This document shows positions 58,979 to 60,622 of a stretch of 64,000 bases of DNA, one piece after another. The notes beneath the pieces were generated by a model. That model had not been told where the DNA came from and did not search any database. It worked only from the letters and a program-made list of their open reading frames with translations. The stretch spans positions 224,001 through 288,000 of the forward strand of contig CAVQJC010000004.1 in assembly GCA_963712745.1 (NCBI GenBank), in the 5' to 3' direction. The translations under genes and the position numbers were made by a program. The stretch is from an uncultured Chloroflexia bacterium (lineage in GTDB: Bacteria; Chloroflexota; Limnocylindria; Limnocylindrales; CSP1-4). Each line of letters begins with the position of its first letter. The first letter of the stretch is position 1.

Positions 58979-60622
58979 ATGAGCGTCCTCGCCGACCGCG
59001 ACATCCGTACCGCCCTGCAGGAGGGGCGGATTCGTATCGACCCCTTCGACGAGGATTGCCTCCAGCCGTCCTCGGTCGACCTCCACCTCGACCGGGAGTT
59101 CCGCGTCTTCCACAACTATCGCTACGACCGTATCGACCCGCGCACCGAGCAGCCCGACCTGACCGAAGCCACCGCCATCGACGGCGACGAGCCCTTCATC
59201 CTCCACCCGGGCGAGTTCGTGCTCGGCCAGACGCTCGAATGGGTGGAGCTGCCCGACGACCTCGTCTCCCGACTGGAAGGGAAGGCGCTGGCGCTCGACA
59301 CACCGGTCCCCACCCCGACCGGATGGCGGACGATGGGCGACCTGATGCCGGGCGACTACGTCTTCGATGAGCGGGGGGCACCGACGCCGGTCGTCGCGGC
59401 CACCGCGCCCATGTTGGATCGACCGTGCCGCGAAGTGACATTCTCGGATGGAGGACGAGTCGTGGCCGATGCGGCGCATCGATGGGTGACCGTCGACAGG
59501 AACAGCCACCTGAGGGCCCGGAGTATCTCGCGGATCCGCACCACCGATGAGATCGCCCGCACGATCCGGGTGCGGGGAGAGATGAACCACCACGTCGCGC
59601 TCGCCGGACCGGTCCAGTACCCGCATCGGCTGGACCTTCCCATCGACCCGTACACGCTCGGTGCGTGGCTGGGAGATGGCGCAACGACCGCTGCTGAGAT
59701 CACCTGCTCTGACGAGCAGATCCTCGAGCGGATCAGCGGTGACGGCTACGAGGTCAGGCGACTCTCGTACGCCCCCGGACTGCACCGGATCGGCGGTATC
59801 GGCCAGACGCGAGATCCCCGGACCGGGCGCAATGTGCGCAACGGAGCGCTCGCGAGCAGCCTGCGCGGCCTCGGTCTGCTGGAGGGCAAGTTCGTGCCCC
59901 GCCCGTACCTGGAGGCAGGCATCGAGCAGCGGCAGGCGCTGCTCGGCGGTCTCATGGACACAGACGGGTTCGTGGAAGACCGCGCCGGTCGGTGCGAATT
60001 CACGAGTACCCGGGAGGGGCTGGCCGACGACGTCGTAGAACTGGCGGCAAGCCTCGGCTTCCGGCCGGTCAAGTCCGTCGGTCGGGCGATGCTCGATGGC
60101 ATCGACCATGGGCCGACGTATCGGGTCAGGTTCACCCCCGACCGGCCGGTGTTCGGGCTATCCCGAGAACTGCGACGTCAGCAGCCGGCGGATGCCCGTT
60201 TCCACCGCTTCCGCGCAGTCGACGTTGTCCGAGAGATACCGTCGGTCCCGGTCCGCTGCATCCAGGTGGGTTCGCCCAGCGGTCAGTTCCTCATCACCAA
60301 GTCGTTCATCCCGACACACAACAGCTCGCTGGGCCGCCTGGGCCTGCTCATCCACTCGACGGCCGGCTACGTGGACCCCGGATGGAAGGGCAACCTCACG
60401 CTCGAGCTCTCGAACGTGGCAAACCTGCCCATCGCCCTCTTCTTCGGCATGCGCATCGGCCAGATCTCGTTCTTCGAGATGTCCAGCCCGGTCGAGCGGC
60501 CCTATGGCAGCAAGGGCCTGGGTTCGCGCTACCAGGGCCAATCGACGCCCACCGCATCGGGCGCCTACCGCGACTTCGAGGCCAACCGGCGCATGACCAG
60601 GGGCGGACCCAGCAGCCCATGA
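58979..60622 (+). CDS. dcd: dCTP deaminase precursor containing an intein (mature protein ~201 aa)
   Basis: [63 protein letters not shown]. Confidence 0.95.
59285..60322 (+). mobile_element. Intein with LAGLIDADG homing endonuclease domain, Ala1/WCT (class 3-type), 346 aa
   Basis: Block [15 protein letters not shown]; block B ADAAHRW; LAGLIDADG blocks LGAWLGDG and LGGLMDTDG; block F VRCIQV; block G IPTHN followed by Ser+1. Confidence 0.95.

Follow-up and report, generated by a model that had tools for sequence, protein, structure and literature searches.

A predicted class 3 LAGLIDADG intein in the dCTP deaminase gene of uncultured Chloroflexota

We analysed a 64,000-nucleotide stretch of DNA from an uncultured soil/freshwater Chloroflexota bacterium of the Limnocylindrales (assembly GCA_963712745.1, contig CAVQJC010000004.1, positions 224,001 to 288,000), hereafter called the window; coordinates are those of the window and features lie on the forward (+) strand unless stated otherwise. 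The dCTP deaminase gene (dcd) of this window is split by a large in-frame insert. The insert is very probably an intact class 3 intein with a LAGLIDADG endonuclease, placed at Lys102-Ser103 of the enzyme and belonging to the P-loop family that includes the Mycobacterium smegmatis DnaB intein DnaBi1 and the inteins of phage terminases. There is also good reason to regard it as a selfish homing element that is old in Limnocylindrales-type Chloroflexota and has been largely inherited with its host. Its repeated loss and/or re-acquisition, with the endonuclease held by purifying selection, is in our view highly probable as well.

Insertion site in the host enzyme

The open reading frame (ORF) of the dCTP deaminase precursor extends from 58979 to 60622 and encodes 547 aa, followed by the stop codon at 60620-60622. 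It scored 195.1 bits against TIGR02274 (dCTP_deam; cut-off 92.8). An alternative upstream ATG at 58907 would overlap the preceding gene, nrdR, and the start at 58979 is favoured since most of the 119 listed homologues are 536-563 aa long (one partial entry has 506 aa).

The initial annotation had described a 1038-bp in-frame insert at 59285-60322 that splits LEGK-SSLGRLG, and our analysis showed this to be right to the base. The Pfam DCD profile (PF22769), which has 153 positions, is cut exactly, with positions 1-100 in the N-extein and 101-153 in the C-extein. TIGR02274 matched in two abutting pieces (1-101 in the N-extein, 102-178 in the C-extein), and the dCTP deaminase-dUTPase of M. tuberculosis (2qxx, E 2e-62) gave the same split, its residues 2-101 aligning with the N-extein and 102-186 with the C-extein. 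Accordingly delimited, the N-extein (58979-59284) has 102 aa and ends in LEGK; the intein (59285-60322, precursor residues 103-448) has 346 aa, starts with ALALDT and ends with IPTHN; and the C-extein (60323-60619) has 99 aa and starts with Ser+1 of SSLGR, encoded by AGC (60323-60325). Splicing of the precursor is predicted to yield a 201-aa mature enzyme and a 346-aa free intein.

The insertion point lies between Lys102 and the first Ser (Ser103 in mature numbering) of the KSSLGR loop. Ser+1, which is residue 449 of the precursor, pairs with residue 111 of E. coli Dcd (1xs1), in agreement with the earlier alignment of Ser+1 with the Ser of the (R/K)SSLxR loop. From residue 111 onward the two proteins are in register, and Glu476 of the precursor is equivalent to Glu138 of E. 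coli. S449, R453 and E476 were all invariant in our homologue alignment. Ser111, Arg115 and Glu138 of the E. coli enzyme reportedly have catalytic roles. Since the insert parts this Lys/Ser/Arg loop (E. coli Ser111/Arg115), which is a nucleotide-phosphate loop, the unspliced precursor is probably inactive, as the initial annotation had inferred.

The host enzyme is of the M. tuberculosis type, and so is probably a bifunctional dCTP deaminase-dUTPase; the best matches in the PDB are to the bifunctional enzyme of M. tuberculosis. Many entries of about 540 aa in public sets are named as dCTP deaminase without mention of an intein.

Class 3 splicing domain

According to Tori et al. 2010 (PMC2807308), class 3 inteins have a non-nucleophilic first residue in co-variation with a Trp/Cys/Thr (WCT) triplet, and Ser or Thr at +1. 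Their splicing depends absolutely on the block F Cys and goes by way of two branched intermediates. In DnaBi1, as described in PMC6195587, this triplet consists of Trp67, Cys118 and Thr137, block B has Asp62-x-x-His65, and the C-terminus is His138-Asn139. The insert of the window begins with Ala1 (GCG, 59285-59287) and so has no Cys, Ser or Thr at position 1. Block B has Asp62-x-x-His65-x-Trp67 within ADAAHRW (D62-W67 at 59468-59485), with Trp at block position 12, two residues after His (H65-R-W67). Cys is found at position 4 of block F (VPVRC325, compared with VPVRC118 in DnaBi1), as part of VRCIQV, with the Cys325 codon at 60257-60259. Thr at position 5 of block G is followed by His-Asn (T344-H345-N346, 60314-60322) at the end of IPTHN (60308-60322), and the first residue of the C-extein is Ser.

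When solved structures were searched with the insert alone, the class 3 DnaB inteins of M. chimaera (6RIX/6RIY) and M. smegmatis (6BS8) were found, with E values of 5.4e-28 for 6rix and 8.5e-27 for 6bs8. The N-terminal splicing region (blocks A and B, residues 1-70, 59285-59494) aligned gap-free to residues 1-70 of these inteins, so that C48, D62, H65 and W67 carry identical numbering; Cys48 is encoded at 59426-59428. The C-terminal splicing region (blocks F and G, residues 312-346, 60218-60322) aligned to residues 105-139 of DnaBi1, Cys325 corresponding to Cys118 and T344/H345/N346 to T137/H138/N139. The class 3 assignment of the initial annotation, made from Ala1 and the WCT triplet, is thus matched residue for residue in solved class 3 inteins and agrees with the fold comparison given below. 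The motifs that it quoted (ADAAHRW, VRCIQV, IPTHN and two LAGLIDADG-like motifs) were all present.

By homology with DnaBi1, we expect that splicing occurs and that it uses Cys325. After translation of the whole precursor, Cys325 of block F would attack the Lys102-Ala1 peptide bond with the aid of Asp62, His65 and Trp67, giving a thioester branched intermediate. The N-extein would then be handed to the hydroxyl of Ser+1, and cyclisation of Asn346 with the help of His345 would release the intein. An O-to-N shift would finally rebuild EGK-SSLGR and give a 201-aa enzyme able to trimerise.

Endonuclease domain and structure model

The middle of the insert matched PI-SceI (E 2e-6), and both LAGLIDADG motifs aligned (LGAWLGDG and LMDTDG). 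Motif 1, LGAWLGDGA (residues 124-132, 59654-59680), aligned to LGLWIGDG of PI-SceI and contains the catalytic Asp131 (59675-59677). Motif 2 (residues 219-229, 59939-59971), which includes LMDTDG, aligned to LAGLIDSDG of PI-SceI, was also found by Pfam, and contains the catalytic Asp227 (59963-59965). Pfam gave 27.7 bits for LAGLIDADG_3 (cut-off 22.5) and 22.5 bits for Hom_end (cut-off 21.1).

The whole precursor was modelled with AlphaFold on the basis of 57 homologues, at moderate confidence (predicted local distance difference test, pLDDT, 78.1), and the model was compared with known structures by Foldseek. PI-SceI (1ef0) was matched with E 6.5e-14 and a template modelling (TM) score of 0.57 on the target, at 16-18% identity. 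The dCTP deaminase-dUTPase of M. tuberculosis was matched across the insert (TM 0.84-0.93 on the target), and the MchDnaB-1 and Msm DnaBi1 inteins were matched with a root-mean-square deviation of 1.6-4.7 Å at 43-51% identity. The insert therefore has two LAGLIDADG motifs each with its catalytic Asp, profile scores above the cut-offs and a PI-SceI-like fold, as found in LAGLIDADG endonucleases. Its endonuclease would be expected to cut intein-free dcd alleles, for which the signs are indirect: a dN/dS of 0.135, the patchy distribution and the AGY codon association, all given below.

Conservation and selection

The window protein was aligned with its best 119 database relatives, all of which have the DCD Pfam domain. 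The relatives range in length from 506 to 563 aa and share 73-81% identity with the window protein over at least 93% of its length. Those that are named come from Chloroflexota or from Limnocylindrales/Limnocylindria metagenome-assembled genomes, and one entry is named Patescibacteria group bacterium. Eleven residues, namely A1, C48, D62, H65, W67, D131, D227, C325, T344, N346 and S+1, were invariant in 120/120 proteins, and H345 was kept in 119/120. The nine intact inteins of the window and of eight species-representative genomes are all exactly 346 aa long, with zero indels. The median pairwise ratio of nonsynonymous to synonymous substitution rates (dN/dS, 36 pairs) was 0.135 in the endonuclease, 0.189 in the splicing parts and 0.197 in the exteins. 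Because the catalytic residues are invariant, indels are absent and dN/dS is low, both the splicing and the endonuclease activities look selected.

Distribution and mobility

Our scan of species-representative genomes gave 78 loci; the sample is biased, since of the six search patterns four fall within the intein. Intein-containing dcd genes were found as ten complete loci (L001-L009, L013) and one fragment at a contig end (L010). Intein-free dcd genes were found at 34 Chloroflexota loci, in the same order of nrdR, dcd and a metallo-beta-lactamase (MBL)-fold gene. The loci L047-L078, mostly from Actinomycetota with two from Acidobacteriota, had neither the intein nor this synteny.

As the initial annotation had suggested, we mapped the presence of the intein on a tree of dcd alleles, here a tree of the exteins of 44 Chloroflexota alleles from which L010, L018 and L045 were left out. 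The distribution is patchy: 11 alleles have the intein and 33 do not, and the former are scattered over the tree. At least six changes of state are forced by well-supported branches, parsimony gives ten, and the intein-containing alleles are no more clustered than shuffled labels.

The codon of Ser+1 follows the presence of the intein. It was AGY in 11/11 intein-containing alleles and in 7/33 intein-free ones, the other 26 being TCN (Fisher p = 4e-6, uncorrected for ancestry). The intein-free AGY alleles are mostly found among intein-containing relatives, and all 17 alleles of the largest intein-free clade have TCN. One pair of loci, L007 with the intein and L036 without it, have identical extein proteins and about 95% identical DNA over the first 7.5 kb compared. 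Their dcd genes differ at 13/594 positions, three of which make up the Ser+1 codon (AGC vs TCG). The pattern is of the sort that a homing element leaves behind, and it fits co-conversion of the flanking codon. It also fits an alternative in which AGY is the cleavable target and TCN an immune allele, some AGY codons being footprints of precise loss; codon and presence patterns together may reflect gain and loss alike.

We looked for a strong conflict between intein and host trees and found none, as the trees are mostly congruent and the deep split of the intein tree mirrors that of the host tree. The one discordance, which has weak support, is that the window intein clusters with L002/L005 and its exteins with L003/L008. 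In the approximately unbiased (AU) test the intein data did not reject the host grouping (p = 0.20), and the extein data gave p = 0.027, for a grouping picked once the tree was known. Movement of the intein appears to have been mostly local.

Relatives and origin of the intein

At E <= 1e-3 a search with the intein alone gave 18,230 representative proteins, of which 4,091 passed E <= 1e-30. We scanned 35 of the best 150 matches against Pfam for their hosts. Four of these 35 were dCTP deaminases (P0126, P0127, P0143 and P0177), with inteins 47-63% identical to that of the window. The remaining hosts were mostly phage terminase large subunits of several families, together with DnaB, FtsK and an AAA_5 ATPase. 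The nearest inteins outside dcd are about 45-54% identical and mostly lie in terminases.

From the best 150 proteins, 164 full-length intein matches were taken. All 164 have Cys at the block F position; 134 start with Ala and 159 end with THN. At +1 there are 97 Ser, 65 Thr and 2 Cys, and 110 of the matches follow a Gly-Lys dipeptide. The Walker A site GK-S/T is called a 'classic' insertion point of P-loop inteins in PMC5050341. It is probably by the likeness of EGK-SS to this GK-S/T context that dcd was reached, and the resemblance of the sites, in a loop that also binds nucleotide phosphate, could explain how a P-loop intein lineage came to settle in a non-ATPase. One locus of the scan (L018), which is a single open frame over its whole length (1-2730), has at 331-1428 a class 3 LAGLIDADG intein 38% identical to that of the window, in a phage-type terminase large subunit at NGK-STEAAG (Walker A).

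In a FastTree phylogeny of 83 inteins, the 13 dcd inteins fell on one side of a branch with weak support (59), and the nine Limnocylindrales inteins formed a well-supported clade (99). In the annotated phage collection, relatives of the intein were at most 38% identical and lay in actinophage terminase, DnaB-like helicase and exonuclease genes; no phage dCTP deaminase with a dcd-type intein was found in that collection. The dcd gene of halovirus HJTV-2, which we inspected, is intein-free (558 nt).

The initial annotation had also noted more A/T-ending codons in the intein than in the exteins. The direction of this difference held, with a G+C fraction at third codon positions (GC3) of 0.812 in the intein (281/346 G/C-ending codons) and 0.910 in the exteins (183/201; Fisher p = 0.002). 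But the difference is modest and lies inside the spread of the window: the 51 long ORFs have a mean GC3 of 0.869 (sd 0.038, range 0.773-0.925), and five of the 51 are below the intein. Foreign codon usage as a sign of recent import was considered and set aside as weak, since the GC3 of the intein is within the range of host genes.

Alternative explanations

Several observations weigh against an intact and mobile class 3 intein. Splicing of this protein is a prediction, and within the model confidence is lowest at the splice junctions (pLDDT < 50 at residues 101-106 and 441-450). Frameshifting indels are present inside the intein in 2/10 complete intein-containing loci: L006 has one 1-nt insertion in the intein (4307-5345 of that locus) and L009 three indels (4307-5345). 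These may be long-read assembly errors or real decay, which would also inactivate dcd. The monophyly of all dcd inteins is weakly supported (59), the AGY/TCN association ignores shared ancestry and comes from a biased sample of alleles, and horizontal movement is weakly evidenced, the deep splits being congruent and the intein AU test giving p = 0.20. The frameshifts in the two related loci would suit a reading of the insert as a decayed, non-splicing remnant in a pseudogene. In the window, however, the reading frame is uninterrupted, none of the catalytic residues is lost or varies among the 120 homologues, and both exteins and intein are under purifying selection, so that this reading is very improbable. 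Equally little weight can be given to a class 2 (KlbA-like) route, in which Ser+1 would attack the N-terminal junction directly and the block F Cys would not be needed. The insert does start with Ala, as KlbA inteins do. But it has the complete WCT triplet, whereas the KlbA inteins with Ala1 do not belong to the WCT group; in Mja KlbA, position 4 of block F is Asp147 and the +1 nucleophile is Cys (PMC2807308), where Cys and Ser are found here. It is also closely homologous to DnaBi1, whose splicing is abolished by C118A (PMC6195587).

The remaining alternative is a purely vertical passenger, whose endonuclease no longer homes and whose patchiness comes from repeated precise loss only. In its favour, intein and extein trees have a well-supported deep split in common, the AU test on the inteins does not reject the host grouping, and the intein-free AGY alleles cluster with intein-containing relatives as footprints of precise loss would. 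However, an idle endonuclease should decay, and it is the endonuclease that has the lowest dN/dS (0.135) and keeps both catalytic Asp in 120/120. In the L007/L036 pair all three bases of Ser+1 differ, against 13/594 positions overall, which the exchange of a DNA tract fits better than point mutation. The weakly supported grouping of the window intein with L002/L005, and of its exteins with L003/L008, also speaks against strict vertical descent. We therefore consider this alternative unlikely and prefer a homing element that has mostly been inherited with its host.

Possible redox or zinc control of splicing

The initial annotation had raised the idea that splicing sensitive to redox or metals might gate the supply of dUMP/dTTP behind nrdR. 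As reported for DnaBi1, H2O2 leads to a reversible Cys48-Cys118 disulfide that blocks splicing in vivo, and every Cys48 substitution tested abolished splicing (PMC6195587). Zinc is reported to inhibit DnaBi1 splicing through Cys118, the Val119 backbone and the hydroxyl of Tyr128 (PMC7360933).

In a switch of this kind, oxidants or zinc acting via Cys325 would reversibly block splicing and curb dUMP/dTTP synthesis under stress, in an operon with NrdR. Some of our results are in line with it: Cys48 and Cys325 align with the Cys48-Cys118 pair of DnaBi1 and both are invariant in 120/120 dcd inteins, zinc binds DnaBi1 at Cys118 (PMC7360933), the genes nrdR, dcd and the next gene are tightly packed, and the insert lies in the nucleotide-phosphate loop, so that the unspliced protein is probably inactive. 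The conservation of Cys48, however, needs no regulatory explanation, because it is family-wide, with Cys48 in 138/164 related inteins from other hosts, and is required for splicing in DnaBi1 (PMC6195587). The non-catalytic Cys48 partner of a DnaBi1-type redox pair is present, but the set of zinc ligands is incomplete: the Cys is there, and the position of Tyr128 is occupied by Phe335, with Phe in 119/120 dcd inteins. Intein-free alleles (33/44 sampled) occur in close relatives with the same nrdR-dcd synteny, which suggests that such a switch would be dispensable. No match to the NrdR-box consensus ACACWANATNTWGTGT with up to three mismatches was found in the window (0.37 expected by chance), although the motif may differ in this phylum; control of the operon by NrdR is accordingly unsupported.

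What stands of the initial idea is thus the register of Cys48 and Cys325, whereas Cys48 is a family-wide residue, the zinc-binding Tyr is Phe, and the nrdR-dcd arrangement is a lineage trait. In vitro sensitivity of the dcd intein to oxidants is plausible by analogy with DnaBi1, and an adaptive switch is possible but unsupported. As a conditional control on dUMP/dTTP synthesis, the switch appears rather improbable. A fuller version, in which the P-loop intein lineage colonised dCTP deaminase via the look-alike EGK-SS and works there as a Cys redox trap in the NrdR operon that would tie the supply of thymidylate precursors to a reducing cytoplasm, is slightly more doubtful still. If it were true, the trap would be a post-translational checkpoint on dNTP synthesis in abundant uncultured soil and freshwater Chloroflexota.

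The intein has four Cys codons, at 59426-59428, 59705-59707, 59993-59995 and 60257-60259. Cys48, Cys237 and Cys325 are invariant in the 120 dcd inteins, and at position 141, 60 of them have Cys and 56 have Ser. Cys237, a residue of the endonuclease domain, is Cys in 113/164 family members.

Gene order and neighbouring genes

The gene upstream of dcd (58408-58971) encodes NrdR, a repressor of ribonucleotide reductase genes with a Zn-ribbon and an ATP-cone, as the initial annotation had stated. The product scored 174.4 bits in a profile search with TIGR00244 (cut-off 124.65) and has the Pfam domains Zn_ribbon_NrdR and ATP-cone. Only 7 nt, which include GGAG, separate the end of nrdR from the start of dcd. 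Downstream lies an MBL-fold gene (60619-61479, Pfam Lactamase_B), which is not part of the intein and whose ATG overlaps the TGA of dcd (ATGA). Because of this overlap and the tight packing, the three genes probably form one operon. Their order is common to the Chloroflexota loci (L001-L046) with and without the intein, and is absent from the Actinomycetota loci.

Several genes related to thiol redox lie nearby, at 61683-62384 (-), 62412-63221 (-), 47833-48396 (+) and 52887-53330 (+), and their products by Pfam scan are an AhpC/TSA-redoxin-like protein, a DsbD-type membrane protein, DsbB and OsmC. Alanyl-tRNA synthetase is represented by two overlapping ORFs in different frames (18093-19925 and 19829-20893, +), the first with tRNA-synt_2c and the second with tRNA_SAD and DHHA1, owing to a frameshift or an assembly error. 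Three genes that stand among housekeeping genes, at 14755-16917 (+), 22222-23253 (+) and 31534-32532 (+), encode a phosphodiesterase with an N-terminal holin-like domain of four transmembrane segments, a Baseplate_J-like protein and a XerC/D-type tyrosine recombinase.

Significance and comparison with known systems

Inteins in the dCTP deaminases of Proteobacteria and Chloroflexi are said to have been recorded in earlier work. In the census of Novikova et al. 2016, Chloroflexi and Euryarchaeota have a single dCTP deaminase intein each; the rows of this census, as available, give no site, class or species, so that the identity of the Chloroflexi entry with the allele described here is unconfirmed. 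The view of the initial annotation that dCTP deaminase is an untypical host holds in so far as such inteins are uncommon in print, but they are on record, both in the 2016 census and as HNH inteins, and the present allele is common in databases. In the open literature (InBase and subscription journals being outside the search) we came upon no paper dealing with the class, site, spread or biochemistry of a LAGLIDADG class 3 dcd intein. Class 3 inteins, their link with phages and the P-loop site are already well described. We regard the element as a new and well-preserved representative of an established intein class that occupies an uncommon host gene, and not as a new kind of element.

Its modestly interesting extra features are the P-loop look-alike site and the codon signature at Ser+1. 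With it, the range of the experimentally studied DnaBi1-type class 3 inteins comes to include Chloroflexota and a metabolic enzyme that is not a P-loop ATPase, and it retains an endonuclease, unlike its crystallised mini-intein relatives. The likeness of its site to GK-S provides a simple and testable explanation for the jump of an intein family to an ectopic host gene, and the AGY and TCN alleles of Ser+1 are natural substrates for studies of endonuclease specificity and of the homing cycle. If splicing were redox-sensitive, oxidative stress would be linked to the supply of dUMP/dTTP.

The same host enzyme family has inteins of another make. That of cyanophage vB_AphaS-CL131 (ORF069) is reported to have an HNH endonuclease and to follow host residue 132, probably another site; it is also reported to excise in E. 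coli. The 'deoxycytidine triphosphate deaminase intein' group of HNH_3, named in a classification of His-Me finger endonucleases, likewise shares the host family and has an HNH endonuclease. PI-SceI (the VMA1 intein), the best structural match, resembles the intein of the window in its two LAGLIDADG motifs with catalytic Asp and in the order HINT-endonuclease-HINT, but it belongs to class 1 (Cys1) and has only 16-18% sequence identity.

The inteins of phage terminase large subunits and the DnaB prototype of mycobacteriophage Bethlehem share with it the WCT triplet, the lack of an N-terminal nucleophile, the LAGLIDADG endonuclease and the P-loop GK-S/T site; they differ in host gene and organism, and the best identity in the phage collection is 38%. 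The likeness to DnaBi1 and M. chimaera DnaB-1 (PDB 6BS8/6OWN and 6RIX/6RIY) extends to the ALAL(D/Y)TP start, the numbering of Cys48, Asp62, His65 and Trp67, VPVRC in block F, (V/I)PTHN in block G, Ser or Thr at +1 and a site after GK, with 43-51% identity over the aligned splicing domain. Those two, however, are mini-inteins without an endonuclease in the Walker A motif of the replicative helicase of Actinomycetota, whereas the dcd intein has a full LAGLIDADG domain, lies in a non-ATPase of Chloroflexota and has Phe in place of the zinc-binding Tyr128.

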